From the NCBI GenBank assembly GCA_013360585.1, contig JABWBH010000010.1, positions 34,629-98,628 of the forward strand: 64,000 nucleotides of DNA. Reading direction: 5' to 3'. The notes below the pieces were generated by a model that saw only the letters and a list, made by a program, of their open reading frames with translations, searched no databases and had not been told where the DNA came from. Origin of the DNA: Phycisphaerae bacterium. GTDB lineage: Bacteria; Planctomycetota; Phycisphaerae; UBA1845. Positions 4,111-55,815 of this stretch are shown here, piece after piece. The position numbers and the translations under genes are program-made. How positions within the stretch are numbered: position 1 is the stretch's first letter; each line of letters begins with the position of its first letter.

Positions 4111-4454
4111 GACAGCCCCCTCTGAATAACCGGTCCGACCCGTCCTCGACCGAGGTCCGCCCCCGTCGAGGGTGATCATTAAGAACAGTGTACCGGAGTT
4201 CGCGGGAAAGCTCCCGCAAGCCCCGCCCCCGGCCGCCTGCGGGGTCCGCGGTCCTTGCTCCGTCCCGTAAGACGCCCTCAAGGACGCTCCGATCCTGAGA
4301 CGCCGGTCCGAGAATCTGACCTCGGTCTGCGGCAAAAGCCTTATCCAACGCCCGACGATAAATGCCTGAACGAAGTTTAATGCGGGATCGGAACGCGCCA
4401 CAACCGCGCGCCCACCCTCGCAAGCACCGGGTCCAACGAACAAAGGAGATGGGC

Positions 4455-7010
4455 ATGCCCGAACGAGTGACGTGGACAGGAAGGCTCGCCGCCGGATCGG
4501 CGGCGTTGATGTTGATGCTGACGATGACGGGTTGCACCGGTGGCGGACCGGGCGGCGGAGGCGGCGGACCTGGCGGCGATCCGGGCGACGGAACCGCGGA
4601 CCGCTCGATCTCCTTCAATACCGATCCGGATGTCGCCCTCGCCGCGGTCGCCGAGCACGGCGAAAACACGCAGACGGCTGCTTACGGCGCGAAAAATGAC
4701 GAAGGCGATCTCACGTCGGTGGACCAGCTCGACTTCGTTACCGCGAGCGGATCGACCGTCTCGATGCAACTCGACGAGGAAGGGCAGCCGGTCTACATCA
4801 GTTCCTCCGACGGCGATGAAGCCGCGTTCACCTACGACGAGGATACGGGAACCGTCGTCGCCACCACGTCCACCGCGGGCGCGACGACCGTGACCGAAGC
4901 CTCGACTTCAAGCGGGACCGACGCAAGCACGGCGAAGCGACGCCCCCTGCTGAGCAAGTCCCAGGAAGACCTCTGCGAGCACCTTTCCACCGCGATCGGC
5001 GTGCTCGACTCGGTCTTTGACTGCGACGACGAGACGGATTGCGATGACCCGGTCTCCCAGGCCGCCCTTCAGCTTCAGGAACTCTGCGAAGCCGACTTCG
5101 AGGAAGTAGATGACCTCGACACGACGCTGGGCACGACGCCCCAGGACATCGCTCTCGGCGTCAAAACCCTGCACACGACGCGCCCCGCGTCCGAGGGCGG
5201 AACCACCGTGATCCTCACGGCGACGCCCTTCGGCGGAACCCGCCCTTATGAAGCGGAGTGGTCGTTCTCCGGCGGACCCGCGGCGGTCGCCGTGGAGAAT
5301 CTGCCGGGCGGCGCCGCGGTCGCGGATATCTTCACCGACGGATCGTACACCTTTGAAGTGACCATCACGGACGCCGAGGGCGCGATCACCACGGCGCAGC
5401 AGACGGTCGACACGAGTGCGGTCGCGCGGCTTCAGATCGAAACTTCAAACGCTTACCCGCTGCCCGGCGAAACCGTGACGTTCGTCGTGGCCGACGGCGG
5501 CGAATCCGCCTCCGACGCGGGTCGCTTCACGTATCTCTGGAATTTCGGCGACGGCTCGACGGGCGAGGGTTCCTCGGTCGAGCACGCGTTTGACGCTGCC
5601 GGCGAGTACCTCGTGCAGGTCGTCGCCACTTCCGACGACGGACGCCGCGCGAAAGGCGCCGTTCCCGTCCTCGTGGACGACGAGCAGGACTGCAAGGTCA
5701 TCTGCTTCGATCAGTCCGGCGACGCTTATTACGACTGCGTCCTCGGAGGCGGAACCGACGCCGAATGCGCCGCCGAAGCCCTGACGCAGCTTGAATCCTG
5801 CGCGATGGCCGAATGCGGCGAGCCGATCGACTGCGACAAGATCTGCCACGTTGCGGCGCGCGAGGTGTACGCCGCCTGCACCGCCGCGGGTCTGGGAGAT
5901 ACGGATTGCGAGACGGAATCGCTCGCATCGCTGGATGCCTGCCTGAGCGAGCAGTGCGGAGGCGAAGAACTCAGTTGCGAAGACCTCTGCGCGAAAAGCG
6001 CCGACGCCGTCTTCCAGCAGTGCCTCAACTCCGACCTGACCACCGACGAATGCAACGACCTGTTCCACGCGACGTATGCGGATTGCACGGAGTTCGGCTG
6101 CGGCGAAGTCCGCAACTGCGAAGACCAGTGCAGCCAGCGGGCCAAGCGCGGCTTTGAACTGTGCCTCCGCAGCGGCGGCGGTGAAACCGAGTGCGCCTCC
6201 CGGGCGCGCTCGTTCGCCGAAGAATGCCTCGCCGACGACTGCGGGACCGAAGGCGACTGTCCCACGCTCTGCGGCGACGAAGCCCACCGCGTGTACGACA
6301 AATGCCTGGCACGCGGCGGCGACGCCGACCGCTGCCAGACCAAGGCCGACGAATACTACCAGGTCTGCCAGGAAGAGCACTGCGACGAAACGACCAACGA
6401 ATGCGAGTCCGCGTGCGTCGCCGCTGCCGACAGTGCGATGGCCGACTGTCTCGCTTACGGCGGGACGGAGGACGCCTGCCTGTCCGACGCGGAGGCGATG
6501 TTCGCCGCGTGCCTGTATGAGAACTGCGGACAGACCAGCGACTGCGCGACGGACTGCGTCGTCAGCGCGCTGGGCTACTACGAAGGCTGCGTCGCCGAAA
6601 CCGGTGACGCCGAGTCCTGCGCCTACGCCGCCTTCAACGGCGTCACCGTCTGCATGACCGACGAGTGCGGCCAAACCGCTCACTGCGAGGATTGCACGCT
6701 CGACGGGCTGGACACGCTCGCCGAATGCGCGGCCTCCGCCACGGACGCCTACCTCTGCGGGCAATACGCCGTCGAGTCCGTTGCGGATTGCATCCAGGAC
6801 GATTGCGAAGATGACGGCGAGGGAGACGACGGGGACGGCGGCGATGATGAAGGCGGCGACGACGGCACGCTGGACTGCGAGGAATACTGCGAGGCGTCCG
6901 CCGCGGACGCTTACGAAATGTGCCTCGCCGACGGCGGCGCTGCTGACGATTGCAGTTTGTCCTTTGACGACAACTACGCCGCCTGCCTTGAAGCGCACTG
7001 TGACGAGTAA
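4455..7010 (+). CDS. lipoprotein with PKD-like domains and nine tandem Cys-rich repeats
   Basis: AAGGAG RBS at 4443-4448. Lipobox LTMTGC. PKD signature WNFGDGSTGEGSSVEHAFDAAGEYLVQV. The C-terminal 440 aa are built from a repeated six-Cys unit. Confidence 0.8.
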   Translation: MPERVTWTGRLAAGSAALMLMLTMTGCTGGGPGGGGGGPGGDPGDGTADRSISFNTDPDVALAAVAEHGENTQTAAYGAKNDEGDLTSVDQLDFVTASGSTVSMQLDEEGQPVYISSSDGDEAAFTYDEDTGTVVATTSTAGATTVTEASTSSGTDASTAKRRPLLSKSQEDLCEHLSTAIGVLDSVFDCDDETDCDDPVSQAALQLQELCEADFEEVDDLDTTLGTTPQDIALGVKTLHTTRPASEGGTTVILTATPFGGTRPYEAEWSFSGGPAAVAVENLPGGAAVADIFTDGSYTFEVTITDAEGAITTAQQTVDTSAVARLQIETSNAYPLPGETVTFVVADGGESASDAGRFTYLWNFGDGSTGEGSSVEHAFDAAGEYLVQVVATSDDGRRAKGAVPVLVDDEQDCKVICFDQSGDAYYDCVLGGGTDAECAAEALTQLESCAMAECGEPIDCDKICHVAAREVYAACTAAGLGDTDCETESLASLDACLSEQCGGEELSCEDLCAKSADAVFQQCLNSDLTTDECNDLFHATYADCTEFGCGEVRNCEDQCSQRAKRGFELCLRSGGGETECASRARSFAEECLADDCGTEGDCPTLCGDEAHRVYDKCLARGGDADRCQTKADEYYQVCQEEHCDETTNECESACVAAADSAMADCLAYGGTEDACLSDAEAMFAACLYENCGQTSDCATDCVVSALGYYEGCVAETGDAESCAYAAFNGVTVCMTDECGQTAHCEDCTLDGLDTLAECAASATDAYLCGQYAVESVADCIQDDCEDDGEGDDGDGGDDEGGDDGTLDCEEYCEASAADAYEMCLADGGAADDCSLSFDDNYAACLEAHCDE
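5688..7007 (+). repeat. nine tandem ~48-aa repeats at protein level: C-x3-C-x10-C-x9-C-x10/11-C-x4-C-G
   Basis: Read directly from the translation: DCKVICFDQ..., DCDKICHVA..., SCEDLCAKS..., NCEDQCSQR..., DCPTLCGDE..., ECESACVAA..., DCATDCVVS..., HCEDCTLDG..., DCEEYCEAS... Confidence 0.8.
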
Positions 7011-8580: not shown

Positions 8581-8667
8581 GCGACGGCGCGCCCGCTACG
8601 ATAACCTCCGTGGGGGGCGGATGTGCCGCCGGGACCGGTCACGAGGACGTACATCAATCAGTTCGGC

Positions 8668-9261
8668 ATGAAAAAGCAAGATTACATCACGGTCGTTTCG
8701 GGGCTGCCGCGCTCAGGCACCTCGATGATGATGAGCATGTTGGAGGCTGCGGGGTTCGAGGTTCTTCAGGACGGTGTGCGCACCGCGGATGAGGACAACC
8801 CGAAGGGTTATTACGAATTCGAGCGGGTCAAGAAGCTGACCGAAGGAGACGTCGCGTGGCTTCCGGACGCGGTGGGGAAGGTGGTGAAGGTCATCTCACG
8901 GCTGCTGGTCGAACTGCCACCCGGATATCGGTACAAGGTGATCTGGATGCGACGGAACATCGACGAGATCATCGCGTCCCAGAAGAAGATGCTCGTGCGT
9001 CGCGGGACGTACGACGACTCCGTCAAGGATGATGAAATTCGCCGAATGCTCCTGAGGCACGTCGAGAAGACGCTTTCGACGATCAAGGAGCGATCCGGCT
9101 ACATCGACCTGATTTTCACGAATTACAACAAGCTGCTGGGCGGATCGCGCGAGGAGGTGGACGCGCTGGCCCACTTCCTCGGCGGCGGCGTCAGCGCTGA
9201 CGCGATGATGCCCGTGGTGGACAAGAACCTCTACCGCAACCGCGCAGGTGCGAAGGCCTGA
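8668..9261 (+). CDS. sulfotransferase family protein
   Basis: The ATG at 8668 gives MKKQDYITVVSGLPRSGTSMM, which matches the PAPS 5'-phosphosulfate-binding loop (PRSGTS). Confidence 0.7.
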   Translation: MKKQDYITVVSGLPRSGTSMMMSMLEAAGFEVLQDGVRTADEDNPKGYYEFERVKKLTEGDVAWLPDAVGKVVKVISRLLVELPPGYRYKVIWMRRNIDEIIASQKKMLVRRGTYDDSVKDDEIRRMLLRHVEKTLSTIKERSGYIDLIFTNYNKLLGGSREEVDALAHFLGGGVSADAMMPVVDKNLYRNRAGAKA

Positions 9262-9268
9262 CGCGCCC

Positions 9269-9297
9269 TTGACATTGCCGGCCGTCCGGAGTAGTCT
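9269..9297 (+). promoter_or_regulatory. sigma70-like promoter of the his operon (TTGACA-17 nt-TAGTCT)
   Basis: TTGACA at 9269-9274, a 17-nt spacer, and TAGTCT at 9292-9297. It lies 10 nt upstream of the leader ATG. Confidence 0.55.
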
Positions 9298-9307
9298 GGA
9301 TTCCACG

Positions 9308-9370
9308 ATGCGGGTCAGGATGCTTTTTGTTGTTCATCATCATCATCACCACGGGGCCGTGGCCGGGTGA
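9308..9370 (+). CDS. hisL: his operon leader peptide MRVRMLFVVHHHHHHGAVAG (six consecutive His codons)
   Basis: The codons CAT CAT CAT CAT CAC CAC occupy 9335-9352 and the stop TGA is at 9368-9370. An alternative start at ATG 9320 gives 16 aa. The ORF lies directly upstream of hisG and is followed by attenuator helices. Confidence 0.7.
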   Translation: MRVRMLFVVHHHHHHGAVAG

Positions 9371-9403
9371 TGGTGTCGCCGTTTTAAGACGAGTAATCAC
9401 CAC

Positions 9404-9438
9404 CGACGCCGGCTCCTGCCGGCGTCGTTCGTTTTCCG
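9404..9438 (+). terminator. his attenuator terminator (10-bp GC stem, 4-nt loop, U-rich tail)
   Basis: CGACGCCGGC (9404-9413) pairs with GCCGGCGTCG (9418-9427). The loop is TCCT and the tail is TTCGTTTTCC. Confidence 0.7.
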
Positions 9439-9477
9439 CCGGATCAGGGGCCGCCGTCACAGACGACGGAGCCTTGA

Positions 9478-10353
9478 ATGACGGTTCGGAAAGATGACCA
9501 GCAGATCCGTCTGGCGCTGCCGAAGGGGCGGATGTCGGAGGGCGTCATTTCTCTTCTCGACGATGCGGGGATTCGGCTTCGTGCCGGGGCCCGCGCCTAC
9601 CGACCGGAGATTTCGCTGCCGGGGCTTGCGGCGAAAACCCTCAAGCCGCAGGCGATCGTGAAGATGCTCCAGGTGGGCAGCCGCGACCTGGGGTTCACGG
9701 GCGCAGACTGGGTGGCGGAGTTCGGGGGGGGAGTCGTCGAGCTGCTTGACACCGGTCTGGATCCGGTGCGGGTGGTCGCGGCGGCGCCGGTCGAGAATCT
9801 CGTGGAGGGTCTCCTCGCCGACGAGCCCCTGATTGTCGCGTCCGAGTTCGAGCGGATCACAAATGACTGGATCCGTCGTCGCGGGCTGCGGGCGACGTTT
9901 CTGCGCTCGTTCGGCGCGACGGAAGTGTATCCGCCGGAGGACGCGGATTGCATCGTGGACGTCGTAGCGACGGGCGCGACCTTGAAGGCGAACCACCTCA
10001 ACGTCGTCGAGGAGCTGATGACGTCGTCGACGCGGTTGTACGCGAGCCCGGCGGCGCTGAACGACGCGGCGATGCGCCGACGGATCGACGGGTTTGTCAT
10101 GCTTCTGGAGTCGGTGCTGGAAGCGCGGCGGCGGGTGATGGTGGAAGTGAACGTCAGCGCCGACGCGATGGAGCGAGTCGTCGCGAAGCTGCCCTGCATG
10201 CGCGAACCGACGATCGCGCCGCTGCACGGTCATCACGGTTATGCGGTGAAGGTCGCGGTCCGGCGTGAGGAGCTTCCCGACCTGATTCCGAGGATCAAGG
10301 CGCTGGGCGGAACCGACATCGTGGTCAGCGAGCTTTCGCAGATCGTGCCATGA
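9478..10353 (+). CDS. hisG: ATP phosphoribosyltransferase, long form
   Basis: 291 aa. Shows IRLALPKGRMSE...DLGFTGADWV and a C-terminal regulatory domain. Confidence 0.92.
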   Translation: MTVRKDDQQIRLALPKGRMSEGVISLLDDAGIRLRAGARAYRPEISLPGLAAKTLKPQAIVKMLQVGSRDLGFTGADWVAEFGGGVVELLDTGLDPVRVVAAAPVENLVEGLLADEPLIVASEFERITNDWIRRRGLRATFLRSFGATEVYPPEDADCIVDVVATGATLKANHLNVVEELMTSSTRLYASPAALNDAAMRRRIDGFVMLLESVLEARRRVMVEVNVSADAMERVVAKLPCMREPTIAPLHGHHGYAVKVAVRREELPDLIPRIKALGGTDIVVSELSQIVP

Positions 10354-11450
10354 AAACTGAGGCGCCTTCGGGGCGCGATGATATTCCGGTGATTCTCCGA
10401 CCCGCGGACCGCCTCCGCGGTCTGACGCCGTATGCCGCGGTCGCACCGTCCGAGTCGATCGATCTTCGGCTCAGCGGCAACGAGGGCGCCGCGCCTCCGG
10501 CGGAGCTGCTGGCGGAAATTCACGGCGCCGACGAATTGATGCGCCGGTATCCGAACGTGGACGCGTTGGAGCGGGAGGTCGCCGAACGTCACGGGGTTTC
10601 GCCCGGCAGGGTGCTGGTTACGGCCGGCGCGGATGACGCCCTGCAGCGCGCCTGTCTTGCGACGTTGGATCGCAGCCGGGAGCTCATTCTTCCCGTCCCG
10701 ACGTTCGAGATGCTGGAGCGGTATGCAACCCTCGCCGGAGGACGGATTATTGAGGTTGCGTGGTCGACGGGCGCGTATCCGACCGTCGCCGTGATGCGAG
10801 AAATTCGACCGACCACCGCGGTGATGGCGGTCGTCACGCCGAACAACCCCACCGGGGCGGTTGCCAACGCGGAGGATTTGCGCCGGTTGAGCCTCGCCGC
10901 GCCGGGCGCGCTGCTGCTGGTGGACCTGGCGTACACCGAATTCGCGGATGTGGATTTGACGCCGACGGCGCTGTCCCTGCCGAACGCCCTGGTCATACGA
11001 ACACTTTCAAAGGCGTGGGGACTGGCGGGGCTGCGCGTCGGATACGCGATCGGCGCGCCGCAGGTGATCCGCTGGCTGCGTTGTGCCGGAAATCCGTATC
11101 CGGTCTCGGGGCTGTCGGCGCAGTTGGCGGCCACGTGGTTGAAGGTGGGGAGCGCGGATCGGCGAGCGTGGATCGACCGTGTGCGGAGGGAGCGTTCGGC
11201 GCTGGCGGGACTCCTGCGCGAACTCGGCGCGAATCCGCTACCCTCCGAAGCGAATTTTGTTCTGGCTGAATTCCAGGATGCGGCACGCGTCGGCGCCGGG
11301 CTGGCGCGACGCGGCGTCGGCGTGCGAGCGTTCCCGGCGCATCCTCTGCTGACGAACCACCTTCGGATCACTTGCCCCGGGGAGCCCTCCGCCTTCGCGC
11401 GATTGACCGACGCGCTTCGACAAATCATGACCGATCAGGGGGAGAGTTGA
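10350..11450 (+). CDS. hisC: histidinol-phosphate aminotransferase
   Basis: Class II aminotransferase with VTPNNPTG and the PLP lysine context RTLSKAWGLAGLRVGY. Its start overlaps the hisG stop as ATGA. Confidence 0.92.
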   Translation: MKTEAPSGRDDIPVILRPADRLRGLTPYAAVAPSESIDLRLSGNEGAAPPAELLAEIHGADELMRRYPNVDALEREVAERHGVSPGRVLVTAGADDALQRACLATLDRSRELILPVPTFEMLERYATLAGGRIIEVAWSTGAYPTVAVMREIRPTTAVMAVVTPNNPTGAVANAEDLRRLSLAAPGALLLVDLAYTEFADVDLTPTALSLPNALVIRTLSKAWGLAGLRVGYAIGAPQVIRWLRCAGNPYPVSGLSAQLAATWLKVGSADRRAWIDRVRRERSALAGLLRELGANPLPSEANFVLAEFQDAARVGAGLARRGVGVRAFPAHPLLTNHLRITCPGEPSAFARLTDALRQIMTDQGES

Positions 11451-11452
11451 AA

Positions 11453-12046
11453 ATGAGTATGACGGTGCGGCGAGGCGAGTTCACACGAAGGACGCGGGAA
11501 ACGGACATTTCGGCGACGCTCATTCTCGACGGCGCCGTGGAGACGGACGTCCGCACGGGCCTTGAGTTCCTCGATCACTTGCTTACGGCGCTTGCCCGGC
11601 ATGCGCGCTTCGGGCTGAAGCTGTCATGCACGGGCGACCTGGGGGTGGACGATCATCACACCGCGGAGGATTGCGCCCTGGCGGTCGGAGCGGCACTCGA
11701 CCGGGCGCTGGGGGAGCGCCGCGGAATCGCGCGCTTCGGCTCCGCGTACGTCCCGCTGGATGAGGCGCTGGCGCGAGCGGTGGTGGATCTTTCCGGGCGG
11801 CCCTTTGCGCGGGTCCGGCTGGGGCTGCGCCGCGACCGTCTCGGAATGATGTCGTGCGAAAACGTCGGACACGTCTTGTCGTCGATGGCGACAGCGGCAC
11901 GGATGACGCTGCATGTGAAAGTGTTGGAAGGAGAGAACGATCATCACCGGGCGGAGGCGGCGTTCAAGGCGGTTGCTCTGGCTTTGCGCGAAGCGGTTCG
12001 TCGGGACGGCTCGGACGAAGTACCGAGCACGAAGGGGGTGCTCTGA
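11453..12046 (+). CDS. hisB: imidazoleglycerol-phosphate dehydratase (monofunctional, no phosphatase domain)
   Basis: The ATG at 11453 follows a GGGGGAGAG RBS. Shows RRTRETDI...DDHHTAEDCALA...GENDHHRAEAAFKA. Confidence 0.92.
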   Translation: MSMTVRRGEFTRRTRETDISATLILDGAVETDVRTGLEFLDHLLTALARHARFGLKLSCTGDLGVDDHHTAEDCALAVGAALDRALGERRGIARFGSAYVPLDEALARAVVDLSGRPFARVRLGLRRDRLGMMSCENVGHVLSSMATAARMTLHVKVLEGENDHHRAEAAFKAVALALREAVRRDGSDEVPSTKGVL

Positions 12047-12669
12047 TGCGATTTGTTCCGGTGACCGTGGTGCATACCGGCGTGGCGAACCTCGCGTCGG
12101 TGCAGGCGGGGCTGCGTCGCGCCGGAGCAGAACCGGTCGTGGCCGAGGATCCTCGCGCGGCTGAGGACGCGGAGCGCCTTGTGCTTCCGGGCGTCGGGGC
12201 GTTTGCGCCGGGGATGGCGAGACTGGCGGTGTGTGGCTGGGTCGAACCGCTGCGGAAGCGGATCGAGGCGGGCCGAGCGACGCTGGCGATCTGTCTCGGG
12301 ATGCAGTTTCTAGGCGGCAGCAGCGAAGAGAGCCGCGGAATCCCGGGACTGAGCGTATTCGCCGAAGGAGCAAAACGTTTCCCGGGGCATGTCCGCGTGC
12401 CGCAGATCGGCTGGAACGCCGTGACCTGCGGCGAGGGGCTCCGCTATCTGTGCGAGGGATATGCGTATTACGCCAACTCATATCGGTTGGACGCCGCTCC
12501 GCAGGGCTGGTGCGCGGCGTGGTCAGATCACGGAGGTCGCTTTGTCGCAGCGCTGGAGCGTGGAAGCGTGCTCGCCTGTCAGTTTCATCCGGAATTATCC
12601 GGGCCGTGGGGCATCGGACTCCTGCGGCGGTGGCTGGGAGCCGGGGGTTCGGAGACGGGATCGTGTTGA
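12046..12669 (+). CDS. hisH: imidazole glycerol phosphate synthase, glutamine amidotransferase subunit
   Basis: The ATG overlaps the hisB stop (TGATG). Shows LPGVGAF...AICLGMQ...ACQFHPE, a triad GATase. Confidence 0.9.
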   Translation: MRFVPVTVVHTGVANLASVQAGLRRAGAEPVVAEDPRAAEDAERLVLPGVGAFAPGMARLAVCGWVEPLRKRIEAGRATLAICLGMQFLGGSSEESRGIPGLSVFAEGAKRFPGHVRVPQIGWNAVTCGEGLRYLCEGYAYYANSYRLDAAPQGWCAAWSDHGGRFVAALERGSVLACQFHPELSGPWGIGLLRRWLGAGGSETGSC

Positions 12670-13418
12670 CGCGACGAGTTATTCCCTGTCTTGACTGTCG
12701 TGACGGCCGCGTGGTCAAAGGGGTGCGCTTCGCCGACCTGCGCGACGTGGGGTCGCCGAGCGAATTGGCGACCGCTTATCAATCCCAAGGCGCCGACGAG
12801 ATCGTCCTGCTGGATGTGGCCGCGACCGTCGAGGCGCGAGCACACCAGGCGGACACGGTGCGCGCGGTTCGGGAAGGGTTGTCGATCCCTCTGACGGTGG
12901 GGGGCGGTGTACGAAGTCTGAAGGACGCGGCGCGGCTTCTCGAAGCCGGAGCGGACAAAGTTGCGGTGAATTCAGCGGCGGCAGCGCAGCCGGAGATCAT
13001 TGACGCGCTCTCGGCGGAGTTCGGTGCGCAATGCACGGTGCTGTCCGTGGATGCCGCGGACGACGGGAGGGGCGGGTGGCGCGTCGTCGTCCGGTCCGGA
13101 AAGGAACCGACGGCGCGCGAGGCGATCGCGTGGGTCCGGGAAGGGGTTGAGCGCGGCGCGGGGGAAATCCTGCTGACAAGCCTGGACCGCGACGGAACCC
13201 GCGCCGGCTACGACCTGATGCTTGTGCGCCAAGCGGCACGAGTCGTGAACGTTCCCGTCATTGCCTCCGGGGGAGCGGCGTCGGCGATCCACTTCTTCGA
13301 GGCGCTCGAGGCCGGAGCGGATGCGGTGCTGGCAGCAGGTCTTTTTCATGAAGGAGCGACGACCGTCGGGGACGTGAAGGGATATTTGTCATCGCGAGGG
13401 ATCGAGGTGCGGCGATGA
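12663..13418 (+). CDS. hisF: imidazole glycerol phosphate synthase, cyclase subunit
   Basis: GTG start at 12663. The N-terminus LTRRVIPCLDCRDGRVVKGVRF is typical of HisF, as are VIASGGA...LAAGLFH. Confidence 0.9.
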   Translation: MLTRRVIPCLDCRDGRVVKGVRFADLRDVGSPSELATAYQSQGADEIVLLDVAATVEARAHQADTVRAVREGLSIPLTVGGGVRSLKDAARLLEAGADKVAVNSAAAAQPEIIDALSAEFGAQCTVLSVDAADDGRGGWRVVVRSGKEPTAREAIAWVREGVERGAGEILLTSLDRDGTRAGYDLMLVRQAARVVNVPVIASGGAASAIHFFEALEAGADAVLAAGLFHEGATTVGDVKGYLSSRGIEVRR

Positions 13419-14686
13419 TTCTTCCCTCGATCGACCTGATGAACGGGCGAGCGGTGCAGCTTGTCGGCGGCGAGGCGCTGGAACTGGACGCGGGCGATCC
13501 CTGTCCGATCGCGGAGCGCTTCAGCGTTGTGGGGGAAGTGGCGGTCGTGGATCTCGATGCCGCGCTGGGGAGCGGATCCAACGCGGACGTGATCCAGGAG
13601 TTGCTGCGGATCGCGCCGTGTCGCGTGGGCGGCGGGATTCGCAGCGTGGACGACGCAGTACGCTGGCTGGACGCAGGTGCGGAGAAGGTGGTGATCGGGA
13701 CCGCCGCGGCGCCGGAGATTCTTTCACGGCTCCCGCGGGAAAGAGTGGTGGCGGCGCTGGACGCCGTGGAGGGAGAGGTCGTCACGCACGGGTGGCGAAC
13801 ACGCACGGGAACCACCGTGGCGGAACGGATGAAGGAGCTTGACGGTCTCGTCGGCGGATTCCTGGTGACGTTTGTCGAGCGAGAGGGGCGGCTTGGCGGA
13901 ACGAAGCTCGAAGCCGTCGAGAGGCTGGTCAGCGTCGCGGGCGGGGCGCGGCTGACGATCGCCGGCGGAGTCACGACACCGGAGGAAATCGCGGCGCTGG
14001 ACCGACTTGGCGCGGACGCCCAGGTGGGGATGGCGCTGTACAAGGGGCGAATGTCGCTGGCGGAGGCCTTCGCGGCGCCGCTGGTCAGCGACCGGCCGGA
14101 CGGATTGTGGCCCACCGTCGTCGCGGACGAGCACGGCGTCGCGCTGGGGATTGCATATTCGAGCCGGGAAAGCCTTCATCAGGCGTTGGAGTCTCGGCGC
14201 GGGGTTTATCACTCACGACGTCGCGGAGTCTGGATAAAGGGGGAGACTTCGGACGCGGCGCAGGAGCTGCTTCGCGTGGATGCCGACTGTGATCGTGATG
14301 CGCTGCGTTTTACGGTCCGACAGCAGGCGCCGGGCTTCTGTCACCGAAGGACGCGCACGTGCTGGGGAGACGATCCCGGGCTTGCGGGGATCGAGCGCAG
14401 AGTGCGCGGGCGTGCGGACGTCGCCCCCCCGGGATCCTACACGCGCCGGCTGCTGGAGGATCCGGCACTCCTGAAAGCAAAGCTCGTCGAAGAGGCTGCC
14501 GAACTCGCGGACGCCGCTGATCCGCGGAACGTGGTGCATGAGGCAGCTGACTTACTGTACTTCTCGCTGGCGCGACTGGCGCAAGCGCGCATCTCGCTTG
14601 CGGACGTTGAGCGAGAACTTGTTCGAAGGGCAATGAAGGTCTCACGCCGGTCGGGCGACGCGAAGTCTGCAAAGGAGGTGACGTGA
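13415..14686 (+). CDS. trifunctional fusion: ProFAR isomerase (HisA) + PR-AMP cyclohydrolase (HisI) + PR-ATP pyrophosphatase (HisE)
   Basis: Residues 1-220 (MILPSIDLMNGRAVQL...VGGGIRS...IAGGV) match HisA. Residues ~225-320 (LWPTVVADE...IKGETS...DCDRDAL...FCHRRTRTCW) match HisI. Residues ~335-410 (SYTRRLL...EAAEL...EAADLLYF) match HisE. Confidence 0.88.
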   Translation: MILPSIDLMNGRAVQLVGGEALELDAGDPCPIAERFSVVGEVAVVDLDAALGSGSNADVIQELLRIAPCRVGGGIRSVDDAVRWLDAGAEKVVIGTAAAPEILSRLPRERVVAALDAVEGEVVTHGWRTRTGTTVAERMKELDGLVGGFLVTFVEREGRLGGTKLEAVERLVSVAGGARLTIAGGVTTPEEIAALDRLGADAQVGMALYKGRMSLAEAFAAPLVSDRPDGLWPTVVADEHGVALGIAYSSRESLHQALESRRGVYHSRRRGVWIKGETSDAAQELLRVDADCDRDALRFTVRQQAPGFCHRRTRTCWGDDPGLAGIERRVRGRADVAPPGSYTRRLLEDPALLKAKLVEEAAELADAADPRNVVHEAADLLYFSLARLAQARISLADVERELVRRAMKVSRRSGDAKSAKEVT

Positions 14687-16020
14687 ATCCGCCCTGGCTC
14701 TGTCGCATGAGTCCTGAAGCTCTCGCGCCGCGACGCCGTCGCGCAGTGGACGCGCACACCCTGGAGAGCGCCTCAAGTATCGTCGAGGATATGCGACAGC
14801 GGGGGGATATCGCCCTGCGGGAATACGCCAGCCGGCTGGACGGCCTGCCCCCGGATGAGCCGCTGGCGATCGACCGGACTTCCTTGGAAGCCTCGCGCGA
14901 CGCCCTTACGCCGCCTGTTCGAGCGCTTCTGGAGCGGGTCGCGGATCGCATCCGGGCGTTCGCGGTCGCGCAGCGGGCCGCGCTCAGCGATCTCTCGTTT
15001 CCGGTGGCCGGTGGTCACGCCGGGCACACGGTGCTGCCGGTCGCGATCGCCGGCTGCTACGCGCCCGGCGGACGATATCCGCTTGTTTCCAGCACTCTGA
15101 TGACGGTGGTCACAGCGCGAGCGGCGGGCGTGGGGCAGGTCTGGGCGTGCTCGCCGCGGCCGACGCCGGTGATGCGAGCCGCCGCCGCGATCGCCGGGGC
15201 CGACGGGATGCTCTGCGTGGGCGGTGCTCACGCGATCGCAGCGCTGGCTTACGGGGCGGCGACGGTTCCGGCATGCGACGTCGTTGTGGGTCCGGGCAAC
15301 CGCTGGGTCACCGCGGCGAAGCACCTCGTTTCCGCAGACGTGGGCATTGACCTGCTGGCGGGCCCTTCGGAGCTGCTGATCCTTGCCGATGATTCCGCCG
15401 ATCCGCATCGCATTGCGGCGGATCTTCTCGCGCAGGCGGAGCACGATCCGGACGCGGTTCCGATGCTGGTGACGACGCAGGAGTCCCTGATCGACGAAGT
15501 CGAGCGCGTATTGTCGTTGCAACTGGCGGAGCTGCCTTCTCGCGACACGGCGGCCAGCGCGCTGCGTAACGGATTTGCGGTTGTGGTCGGCGGGACGGAC
15601 GAGGGGATCAATGTATGCAATCGTGTCGCTGCCGAGCACGTCGAGCTGCACGTTCGTGATCCCCGGGAAGTTGCGGCGCGGATCCGGTGCGCCGGAGCGG
15701 TTTTTCTCGGGGAAGACTCTGCGGAAGTGCTCGGCGACTACGGCGCCGGCCCGAATCATACCCTGCCGACGGGCGGGACGGCGCGGTATGCCTCGGGATT
15801 GTCTGTGTTCACGTTTCTGCGATGTCAGACCTGGTTGCGGCTGAACCGCGCGGACGTCACGTCCCCGCCGGGATTCGGCGCGGCGGGACAAATCGTGGAC
15901 GGCACGGCGGAACGCATGATCGACGACGCGGCGGCGCTGGCGCGGCTGGAAGGCCTGGAGGGACACGCCCGCAGCGCGGAGCTTCGTCGCATCCCGGCGT
16001 CGAGGCTTCGCCGATCGTAG
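14683..16020 (+). CDS. hisD: histidinol dehydrogenase
   Basis: GTG start after an AAGGAGG RBS, overlapping the upstream stop as GTGA. Shows ...AGPSE...AQAEHD...GDY.AGPNHTLPT. Confidence 0.92.
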   Translation: MNPPWLCRMSPEALAPRRRRAVDAHTLESASSIVEDMRQRGDIALREYASRLDGLPPDEPLAIDRTSLEASRDALTPPVRALLERVADRIRAFAVAQRAALSDLSFPVAGGHAGHTVLPVAIAGCYAPGGRYPLVSSTLMTVVTARAAGVGQVWACSPRPTPVMRAAAAIAGADGMLCVGGAHAIAALAYGAATVPACDVVVGPGNRWVTAAKHLVSADVGIDLLAGPSELLILADDSADPHRIAADLLAQAEHDPDAVPMLVTTQESLIDEVERVLSLQLAELPSRDTAASALRNGFAVVVGGTDEGINVCNRVAAEHVELHVRDPREVAARIRCAGAVFLGEDSAEVLGDYGAGPNHTLPTGGTARYASGLSVFTFLRCQTWLRLNRADVTSPPGFGAAGQIVDGTAERMIDDAAALARLEGLEGHARSAELRRIPASRLRRS

Positions 16021-54013: not shown

Positions 54014-55360
54014 TCACGGACACGTCACCGTCACCGCCGCGCCGCACTCCGCCGGATCGGTCAACGCGACCGCGTGCTCTCCCGAGTTCACGCCTTGCCA
54101 CGTCCACCGCGCCTTCCGCCCGTTCACCGCTCCCTGATGCGGCACGCCGTCCAGCGTTGCGTACAAGACGACGCCGTCTTGCGCTTCTCCGCTCAGCCGC
54201 GCCCGCGCCCGCACCCGACCGGATGCGCCGCACCGCGCCCGGAACACCCGCACGTCATCGCACGTCACGCCCGATCCCACGGTGTACACGTACGCCAGCG
54301 AGGTCCACGCATCGCGCACGAGGAGTTCGCCCGGCGCCGCGTTGTGCGTCGCGTCGTACCAGTTCGAGTCGTTCGCCCCGTCCGGATCGACCCGGCGCAC
54401 CTCGTCCGGGTCGTCGTTGTCCGCCGGACCTTCGCCACGCCAGGCCGCCTCGATCGCCTCCGCCGCGACGAGACCCAGCGCGTCCACGTCGCCCGTCGCG
54501 AAATCACCGCCGCCCGTGTGAAGGTTGCCGCTCGTGTCAAAGCCCAGCGATGCCGCCGACAGCACGTCGCAGACCTGCACGCCCTCGGCCTCGTAGTCGA
54601 TCGGCGAGCCGCCTTCGACCGCCTCGCGCCAGCGCGCGTAAGTAAACCCCTTCACCCAGCCCGTCTCGCTCGGTCCGTTGAGCTTCAAACCGGTCCCGGT
54701 GTAAAGGTTGCCCGCGGCGTCGAACGCCACCCCGGCCGAGAAGGGACCGCCGGTCATGAACCGAGGATTCACGGGCGCCTTCGGATCGCTCGTCGTGTCC
54801 AGCAGCGTCATCTCGCCCGCGTCGCGGATCGCCAGGTGAACGTCATCGAACCACTCCGCGTCGTAGTGCCCGACGAAAAACCACGTCCCCGCCAGCGTCT
54901 GCACGTCGAACACGCCCACCGCGTCGAAACTGTTCCCCACCGCGAAGCGCGTGCCGTCCGGCGAAACCCGCACGAACGCCGGATACGACACCGGACCGCC
55001 CTCTCCCGGCAGCGCCCCCCGAGGCTCGAAATGCCGCGACCCCGGCGAGGTCTCGATGTACACATCGTTGGCCGCGACGACGATCACGCGCCCGTCCGGA
55101 TGAACGTCAAACATGTCCTGAAACGCCCCCGCCGAGGGCAGGGGCACGGCCCCGCGCAGACCGTATCCGCCGATGTCACTGGCCAACGCCTTCGCCCCGA
55201 TCAACGAGACAATCCCCGCAATCGCAATGAGACCCCGCTGCAAAACCGAACCGTGCCCGCCAGGAAGCGGGTGCTTCCAGCCGCTCAAACAAAAGCGGTA
55301 ACTGGGAACAAGCGAACAAACTGAGGTGAAGCGCCGCAAGGCGCGGCTTCCGATCGACAT
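54014..55360 (-). CDS. hypothetical exported protein, first gene after the cobalamin riboswitch
   Basis: The ATG at 55360 is preceded by AAGGAGGAA. It has the hydrophobic segment LIAIAGIVSLIGAKALA. The beta-rich repeats (HPDGRVIVVAAND, SPDGTRFAVGNS, DAAGNLYTGTG, DTSGNLHTGGG) suggest a propeller-like fold. Confidence 0.6.
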   Translation of the reverse strand: MSIGSRALRRFTSVCSLVPSYRFCLSGWKHPLPGGHGSVLQRGLIAIAGIVSLIGAKALASDIGGYGLRGAVPLPSAGAFQDMFDVHPDGRVIVVAANDVYIETSPGSRHFEPRGALPGEGGPVSYPAFVRVSPDGTRFAVGNSFDAVGVFDVQTLAGTWFFVGHYDAEWFDDVHLAIRDAGEMTLLDTTSDPKAPVNPRFMTGGPFSAGVAFDAAGNLYTGTGLKLNGPSETGWVKGFTYARWREAVEGGSPIDYEAEGVQVCDVLSAASLGFDTSGNLHTGGGDFATGDVDALGLVAAEAIEAAWRGEGPADNDDPDEVRRVDPDGANDSNWYDATHNAAPGELLVRDAWTSLAYVYTVGSGVTCDDVRVFRARCGASGRVRARARLSGEAQDGVVLYATLDGVPHQGAVNGRKARWTWQGVNSGEHAVALTDPAECGAAVTVTCP

Positions 55361-55402
55361 GCGTTCCTCCTTCTTGTGCCGGGGGCGCCAAACCCGGGCG
55401 CC

Positions 55403-55447
55403 CGAAAAACAAAAAAATCCCGGCGCTTCGCGGAGCAAAGCGCCGGG
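55403..55447 (-). terminator. intrinsic terminator forming the riboswitch expression platform
   Basis: On the minus strand, CCCGGCGCUU-N9-AAGCGCCGGG forms a 10-bp stem (55419-55447), followed by AUUUUUUUGUUUUUCG. Confidence 0.75.
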
Positions 55448-55559
55448 ACCGCACGTCTCGGAAGGAAACGCCGAACCCGCCGCGCACGTGTGCGACGGAA
55501 CGGCGCCCGATCGGGCTGGTCGCGGCCGCCGTCCCCGAGGCGCCACGTCCGAACGCGGT

Positions 55560-55753
55560 GGCAGGCAGGTCTTCTGGCTGACGGATCACTCTACTTGCCG
55601 GGCCTTCTCCGCGCGAGCTTCACAAGCCTCAAAACCTGCAAAGCCCCGCCCGAATGGCGCATCCGGCTTTCGTCCCCGATCACAGCGGCGGGTCCACGGT
55701 GGATTCGCACCACCTTCCCTCTTCGAGCGCGGCATCGCGCCCGACCTGCTACC
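55560..55753 (-). promoter_or_regulatory. cobalamin (B12) riboswitch aptamer
   Basis: The minus strand carries GGGAAGGUGGUGCGAAUCCACCGUGGACCCGCCGCUGU and the B12 box AGCCAGAAGACCUGCC. GGUAGCAGGUC and GACCUGCCUGCC form the closing helix. Confidence 0.85.
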
Positions 55754-55815
55754 GCAAAGGATTCACTTGTCACGTTTGCGGCCCCACGCGCCGAAGCCGC
55801 CAAGACCGCATCGAC

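Follow-up and report, generated by a model that had tools for sequence, protein, structure and literature searches.

The leader region directly upstream of hisG in the window, by which is meant the whole 64,000-nt (64-kb) stretch of Phycisphaerae bacterium contig JABWBH010000010.1 that was analysed, probably functions, at a probability of roughly 0.85, as a histidine-responsive, ribosome-mediated transcription attenuator of the hisGCBHF(A-IE)D operon. All coordinates are window positions, and all parts of the leader and operon lie on the + strand (Table 1). This function had been proposed in a first-pass annotation made from the letters alone, and it is supported by the his operon lying downstream, by competing helices of comparable energy and by conservation of the element in a family of related leaders. 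The mechanism itself is classical; what is new is a broad, conserved family without an Rfam model, Rfam 15 holding none that detects the element.

The leader contains a 20-codon open reading frame (ORF), MRVRMLFVVHHHHHHGAVAG*, in which 6 of the 20 codons specify His and follow one another without interruption, as the first-pass annotation had read it. The pattern CAYx6 occurs once on the two strands of the window and in none of 100 dinucleotide shuffles, and a chance origin of the arrangement of His run and hairpins can be excluded. The leader stop codon UGA (9368–9370) sits five codons past the His run and inside segment 2, the block GGCCGGGUGAUGGUG. In addition, a repeat finder returned the 8-mer ATCACCAC as a direct repeat, present at 9345–9352 and again at 9396–9403.

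Unconstrained minimum free energy (MFE) and centroid folds of 9300–9445 consist of exactly two structures, helix 1:2 and the terminator. Helix 1:2 joins 9341–9350 to 9366–9375 through 10 bp with one G-U, the same helix that had earlier been derived by hand, and it was also returned as an inverted repeat by the repeat finder. The terminator arms (9404–9413 and 9418–9427, followed by TTCGTTTTCC) likewise form an inverted repeat and were called independently by a terminator scan, which bears out the earlier description of a 10-bp terminator and U-tract ahead of hisG; the hisG ATG at 9478 lies 41 nt past the U-tract and 51 nt past the hairpin. The antiterminator was identified by folding the nascent transcript ending before the terminator 3' arm with the His region masked; 9361–9375 pairs with 9398–9414 through 14 bp with small bulges, taking in the whole of the terminator 5' arm. 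The energies of hairpin 1:2, the antiterminator and the terminator are −20.8, −22.7 and −22.7 kcal/mol, respectively, so that the folding check suggested in the first-pass annotation yields competing structures that are energetically comparable. The 2:3 helix put forward there (9372–9378 with 9404–9410, 7 bp including one G-U) exists at its coordinates but, at −8.9 kcal/mol, is weaker than the 14-bp pairing, and in the modelled folds the functional antiterminator is most likely 9361–9375/9398–9414 rather than the 7-bp helix.

In the proposed mechanism, transcription would begin at or a few nucleotides from ATG 9308, and the 20-codon leader would be translated without a Shine-Dalgarno (SD) sequence. 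When charged His-tRNA is plentiful, the ribosome would reach UGA 9368–9370 and cover segment 2 (9361–9375), because the stop codon lies inside that segment; when no ribosome is present, segment 2 would instead pair with segment 1, which holds the His codons. Both situations would leave segment 3 free, so that the terminator at 9404–9427 could form, and together with the U-tract it would halt RNA polymerase 50 nt ahead of hisG. Under a shortage of charged His-tRNA, the ribosome would stall at 9335–9352, masking segment 1 and sparing segment 2; the freed segment 2 would then pair with 9398–9414 once that stretch has been transcribed, sequestering the terminator 5' arm and allowing the polymerase to enter hisG.

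Related loci were taken as the 80 best matches from a scan that covered each GTDB species by one genome and used an alignment of HisG relatives as query. A His-rich mini-ORF, defined as one with at least 4 His in 9 residues that ends 60–300 nt 5' of hisG, was found upstream of hisG in 53 of the 80 loci, and in 47 of these 53 a simple hairpin with a T-tract starts 25–50 nt past the leader stop; the distance from terminator to hisG varies from 34 to 183 nt. What the loci have in common is a His-rich mini-ORF whose stop codon falls within GGUGAUGGUG, a sequence complementary to the His codons, with a terminator that starts 25–50 nt further on. Two conserved blocks appear in the aligned leaders: the first, ...GGCCGGGTGATGGTG(TAG)..., carries the stop codon, and the second is the near-invariant terminator CGACGCCGGCC...GGCCGGCGTCG-Tn. 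The segment 2 block is conserved across phyla in alignments A2 and A3, and the spacer region 9378–9394 is unconserved in both.

The conserved block holds stop codons in two frames, and in some lineages the leader runs through it in the other frame, ending ...MV* (AUG GUG UAG) rather than ...AG* (GGG UGA). For instance, the leaders of L004, L011, L039, L043 and L072 end ...MV*, ...ML* or ...MA* at the TAG or TAA of GATGGTGTAG, not at the TGA of GGGTGATGG. Since the frame differs while the RNA block is kept, what selection preserves is the RNA and the place of the stop codon, not the peptide. A loose M-x(4-9)-H(n) pattern recurs among the peptides, and outside the His run their sequence is unconserved.

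A covariance model, R1, was built from 25 leaders including that of the window, with helix 1:2 and the terminator specified; helix 1:2 was set by hand, RNAalifold on the raw MAFFT alignment of 47 leaders having given the terminator only. Of the 80 loci, 57 have an R1 match on the + strand directly 5' of hisG, and many of these lay outside the seed, with scores of 30–67 bits. Its single match in the 64-kb window reaches 91.5 bits, a score that is partly by construction because the window is in the seed, and no second copy of the leader element was found there by R1. The window contains every block of the R1 family, namely TTGAC 35–39 nt before the start, the His run, GGCCGGGUGAUGGUG with the stop, CGACGCCGGC...GCCGGCGUCG with its U-tract, and hisG. 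In the three nearest metagenomic relatives, whose HisG is 77–80% identical, R1 scores 43–91 bits, and a check for the His run and terminator in close relatives, which the first-pass annotation had advised, found them in all.

Counted by taxon label, the element is present in 27 of 27 loci from Planctomycetota, 9 of 9 from Acidobacteriota, 4 of 4 from Gemmatimonadota, 8 of 15 from Myxococcota and 'Deltaproteobacteria', 2 of 2 from Gammaproteobacteria and 0 of 6 from Alphaproteobacteria, with single loci each in Methylomirabilota, Krumholzibacteriota, Thermodesulfobacteriota and Armatimonadota. Two finished genomes carry it, those of Labilithrix luteola DSM 27648 (locus L072, where the element spans 2305–2416) and Acidobacteria bacterium Mor1. 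Concerning the labels themselves, the HisG and the leader (MSDVFLRSLHHHGSWAAGDG) of L079, a genome that carries the label Acidobacteria (bin61), hardly differ from their counterparts in L058 and L068, two Gammaproteobacteria/Acidiferrobacteraceae genomes, a likeness that suggests mis-binning or recent transfer.

Helix pairing and covariation were counted on an R1-based alignment of 47 distinct sequences. The terminator has 95.7% of its cells paired, and 6 of its 10 pairs have changed on both sides; at one pair, 20 sequences have G-C and 18 have A-U. Helix 1:2 has 75% of its cells paired, and none of 500 shuffles attains the covariation score observed for the terminator and helix 1:2 jointly. 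The antiterminator in the register of the window has 74.9% of its cells paired, compared with 27–55% when slid, a control that is biased because the structure comes from one of the sequences. A per-locus test folded the nascent RNA that begins just ahead of segment 2 and runs to the terminator loop, taking 200 dinucleotide shuffles of its upstream part as reference: the antiterminator folding energy has a mean z of −2.83 over 58 loci, with 81% below −1.64, and 7.5 of the 10 bases of the terminator 5' arm are paired upstream, compared with 6.1 in shuffles.

Meanwhile, the promoter TTGACA-17-TAGTCT that had been assigned to 9269–9297 has its hexamers and spacer in place. A generic promoter scan made no promoter call at the leader, because TAGTCT matches TATAAT at only three of six positions, and the case for this putative promoter rests on its conservation in relatives. 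Among the 55 related loci examined, 51 yielded a pairing of −35 box and start, and 48 have a TTGAC-type −35 hexamer 35–39 nt 5' of an in-frame leader start. With a spacer of 16–18 nt, the relatives' −10 hexamer has A at position 2 in 48 of 51 loci and T at position 6 in 47 of 51, and the gap from −10 box to leader start codon is 5–10 nt in 50 of 51. An SD-like motif precedes 2 of 51 leader starts as against 24 of 25 hisG starts, and none is found at −16 to −4 of ATG 9308. This ATG is 39 nt from the −35 box and 10 nt after the −10 box, and the −35-to-start spacing of the family together with this geometry therefore favours it over ATG 9320; the predicted transcription start lies at most 3–4 nt before it. 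The leader peptide is thus most likely translated leaderless from ATG 9308, since the gap from −10 box to start is short and the SD motif is rare across the family. Between the two options offered by the first-pass annotation, promoter spacing and the missing SD motif favour the leaderless start at 9308 and speak against ATG 9320.

Several observations weigh against the attenuator reading. The −10 hexamer is a poor consensus match (3/6), the U-tract is interrupted (UUCGUUUU), and the 10-nt gap from −10 box to ATG allows a 5' untranslated region of 3–4 nt, not zero. Covariation of the antiterminator in a fixed register is weak, because antiterminator registers differ among lineages. The window's own antiterminator has a z of only −1.28, with 23 of 200 shuffles equally stable, and support for the antiterminator therefore rests on the family, not on the window by itself. 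Equilibrium folds of the full leader keep the terminator even with segment 1 masked; under ribosome masking to 9356 the full-length terminator state has −38.5 kcal/mol and the forced antiterminator −33.1, about 5 apart. Antitermination must therefore be kinetic, the antiterminator being transcribed first. Finally, the transcription start, termination and the histidine response are all features that we infer, as are leaderless initiation and ribosome stalling.

Other explanations of the same region have to be weighed against an attenuator. The hairpin could be a constitutive terminator or a stabilising 5' structure, with a His run that is coincidental or encodes a metal-binding, His-rich micropeptide; His-rich peptides are able to bind metals, and the leaders do share the loose pattern described above. 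Yet the His run precedes a histidine operon in more than 50 genomes of at least 8 phyla, CAYx6 is expected 0 times by chance, and the peptide is unconserved outside the His run, its C-terminal frame varying while the RNA block is kept, which together make this explanation highly improbable. Control mainly of hisG translation, through sequestration of its ribosome-binding site rather than through transcription, would have precedent in the translation-acting variants of leader-peptide attenuators (PMC9413887); here, however, the hairpin carries a U-tract and stops 41–51 nt short of the hisG SD and ATG, and a terminator-to-hisG distance that ranges from 34 to 183 nt in relatives makes a fixed SD pairing unlikely, so that such control has equally little to recommend it.

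More can be said for the view that the mini-ORF acts through translation-dependent protection from Rho, or through general transcription–translation coupling, and not through an antiterminator/terminator switch. A Rho-protection scheme has been proposed for some leaderless Cys upstream ORFs (uORFs) of mycobacteria (bioRxiv 10.1101/834739), which the leaderless-looking ORF of the window resembles, and the antiterminator of the window is individually non-significant. Such a mode of action would not need a strong intrinsic terminator with a T-tract at a set distance from the leader stop, as found in 47 of 53 loci, nor a terminator 5' arm that is complementary to the stop-codon segment throughout the family, and it is considered very unlikely. 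The most improbable alternative is a leader RNA that reads histidine status by itself, either binding uncharged tRNA-His in the manner of a T-box or acting as a riboswitch, with the ORF left untranslated. His T-boxes are used by some his operons of Firmicutes and Actinobacteria (PMC9413887), but no such model matches the leader at E≤10 or, across 20 related loci, reaches its gathering score; at about 125 nt the region is too short, it has no specifier-loop architecture, and the in-frame start, the His run and the stop are all conserved.

The attenuator shares its logic with enteric hisL, in which stalling on His codons prevents termination, and both leaders have a short ORF with consecutive His codons, alternative hairpins and an intrinsic terminator before hisG. 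Enteric hisL has six pairing segments (A–F), an SD-led ORF of 16 codons and a stop two codons past the His run, whereas the window leader has four segments, no SD and a stop five codons past the His run in segment 2; the operon orders also differ, hisGDCBHAFI in enterics and hisGCBHF(A-IE)D in the window. A search with the Rfam His_leader model, suggested in the first-pass annotation, gave no support for membership of that family: RF00514 has no match at E≤10 in 8800–10000, and neither it (gathering score 49 bits) nor any other Rfam family reaches its gathering score in 20 related loci, while E. coli hisL, used as positive control, scores 131.6 bits. Conversely, R1 gives E. coli hisL 18.7 bits. 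By sequence, the window leader thus lies outside the RF00514 enteric hisL family. A Thr_leader match over the full length (22 bits, E 0.18, gathering score 55) was rejected, as E. coli hisL scores Thr_leader equally; the score is a generic likeness of a codon run plus terminator.

In E. coli trpL there are four segments, with the stop near or in segment 2, a 1:2 helix without translation, a 2:3 antiterminator and a 3:4 terminator with U-tract; the antiterminator does not exceed the terminator in thermodynamic stability, and the choice between them is kinetic. The window leader is like trpL in its four-segment layout, in the stop within segment 2 and in a terminator at least as stable as the antiterminator, and it differs in using His rather than Trp, six rather than two regulatory codons and a probably leaderless ORF, with no sequence relationship. 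Its layout is closer to trpL than to enteric hisL.

His leader-peptide attenuators have been described in Gammaproteobacteria and three Firmicutes lineages (PMC9413887, PMC2965389, PMC4833913). Those predicted in Firmicutes belong to hisZ/hisS paralogues of the B. cereus group, to Peptostreptococcaceae and to Erysipelotrichales (PMC9413887, PMC2965389); like the window leader they are non-proteobacterial, have terminator and antiterminator hairpins and are unmatched by RF00514 (PMC9413887; PMC2965389). Compared by description, they differ in coming from other phyla and low-GC sequences, in having three to five His codons and in preceding hisZ or hisS as first genes. Leaderless leader peptides are likewise known, 14 having been predicted in Deinococcus deserti (PMC4007540) and leaderless poly-Cys uORFs being described for mycobacteria (bioRxiv 10.1101/834739). 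Their start codons lie at the transcript 5' end and lack an SD, as is predicted for the window; in those cases the start sites are mapped and other amino acids are involved, with no shared RNA family, whereas the start in the window is deduced from promoter spacing. A leaderless sensor ORF is therefore a known variant and no new principle. No His attenuator for Planctomycetota, Acidobacteriota, Gemmatimonadota or Myxococcota was found in the literature searched, although the survey of Lopatovskaya et al. 2010, reportedly the broadest published one of classical attenuation, may list some.

The first-pass annotation had regarded such an element as unexpected in planctomycetes, a view that gives way to a sequence-conserved family in at least 8 phyla. 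By its sequence the planctomycete leader is homologous to elements of several other phyla and is no lineage-specific invention, and an origin independent of enteric hisL is plausible because no similarity to RF00514 is detectable. A quick neighbour-joining tree of HisG interleaves the phyla and has a star-like topology; the interleaving is consistent with horizontal movement of operon and leader, and a star-like tree is no test of transfer against low resolution. The balance tilts slightly towards the window leader being the founding example of an uncurated his-leader RNA family with a leaderless sensor ORF, attached to a hisG-hisC-hisB-hisH operon in at least 8 phyla and either old or spread horizontally with the operon. 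Its claimed range takes in all sampled Planctomycetota, Acidobacteriota and Gemmatimonadota, many Myxococcota, and some Gammaproteobacteria, Methylomirabilota, Armatimonadota, Krumholzibacteriota and Thermodesulfobacteriota. The near-invariant terminator across phyla is an evolutionary puzzle, to be explained by a three-way pairing constraint or by horizontal spread; the former would apply because segment 3 pairs with both segment 2 and segment 4, so that a change would need three coordinated substitutions.

One metagenome scan with the DNA pattern CCGGGTGATGGTG-N(18-45)-GACGCCGGC gave 120 matches, most of which are coding sequence and 49 of which have the minimum gap of 18 nt. The form CCGGGTGATGGTG-N18-GACGCCGGC recurs in many GC-rich metagenome contigs (L088–L207), and many of the 18-nt-gap matches inspected encode a conserved phosphofructokinase-like motif, RVMVLEVMGRDAG; the likeness of these coding matches to the attenuator blocks is coincidence. 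An upstream His run is present in only 6 of the 120 matches, all 6 of which precede hisG-hisC, and no other regulated genes for the leader family were found among the 120.

If the attenuator reading holds, the textbook mechanism would be extended to phyla in which his regulation is essentially uncharacterised, and the universal presence of the element in planctomycete loci would imply tight transcription–translation coupling in Planctomycetota. R1 is usable for annotation and would keep the mini-ORF from being missed or mis-called. Labilithrix luteola DSM 27648 provides a cultured carrier of the family, and the leaderless sensor ORF would offer a system for studying how, during attenuation, a ribosome that initiated as a 70S particle stays in step with RNA polymerase.

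Table 1. Features of the his leader and operon in the window.
Feature	Position	Strand	Basis or remark
−35 hexamer TTGACA	9269–9274	+	Sequence; conserved in relatives
−10 hexamer TAGTCT, 17-nt spacer	9292–9297	+	Sequence; conserved in relatives
Leader-peptide ORF, 20 codons	9308–9370	+	Sequence
Six consecutive His codons (CAT x4, CAC x2), predicted regulatory codons	9335–9352	+	Sequence
Segment 1, last His codons and CGG; pairs with segment 2	9341–9354	+	MFE and centroid fold
Segment 2, GGCCGGGUGAUGGUG, contains stop UGA 9368–9370	9361–9375	+	Complementary to His codons and segment 3
Small spacer hairpin in antiterminator loop	9378–9394	+	Variable in relatives
Segment 3, His-codon-like CACCACC and terminator 5' arm	9398–9414	+	Pairs with segment 2 as antiterminator
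Intrinsic terminator hairpin, 10 bp, 9 G-C, 4-nt loop (CUCC-U region, 9414–9417)	9404–9427	+	
U-tract UUCGUUUUCC	9428–9437	+	Terminator scan; T-rich tail conserved in relatives
hisG Shine-Dalgarno GGAG	9468–9471	+	Sequence; 6 nt 5' of ATG 9478
hisG, long form	9478–10353	+	Pfam
hisC, hisB, hisH, after hisG	within 9478–16020	+	Pfam
hisF-like His_biosynth gene, after hisH	within 9478–16020	+	Pfam
Single ORF, His_biosynth (HisA-like) with PRA-CH and PRA-PH (HisI, HisE)	13415–14686	+	
hisD, last operon gene	ends 16020	+	Pfam

The operon 3' of the leader is complete by Pfam matches, with seven genes from hisG at 9478 to the end of hisD at 16020 in the order hisG-hisC-hisB-hisH-hisF-(hisA-hisIE)-hisD, the ORF at 13415–14686 being apparently a hisA-hisIE fusion. 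Among the 80 related loci, 69 retain the order hisG-hisC-hisB(-hisH). The best HisG matches are from metagenome-assembled genomes of Planctomycetota/Phycisphaerae, with a top identity of 80%, and an identical HisG protein is present in the assembly of run DRR335824.

Some minor observations concern the surroundings of the leader. Short tandem repeats lie directly 5' of the leader promoter region in two related loci, with CCCCTCAT units at about 2140–2240 of L076 and GGCACT units at about 2280–2320 of L057; tRNA genes stand a few hundred nucleotides 5' of the his leader in two Phycisphaerae loci (L005, 1683–1755; L018, 2062–2135), and an Acido-Lenti-1 small RNA (RF01687, 44.2 bits) lies 5' of the leader in the Planctomycetota locus L055 (356–401). 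In the window, the 5' neighbours on the + strand are a 212-amino-acid ORF with a borderline Sulfotransfer_3 match (8623–9261, ending at 9261) and an 882-amino-acid protein with PKD domains (4362–7010), neither of which has an obvious connection with histidine metabolism. Across the window, Rfam yields a single family at gathering score, a cobalamin riboswitch (RF00174, 104.7 bits), which lies on the − strand at 55547–55764, directly upstream of the minus-strand ORF 54014–55546.

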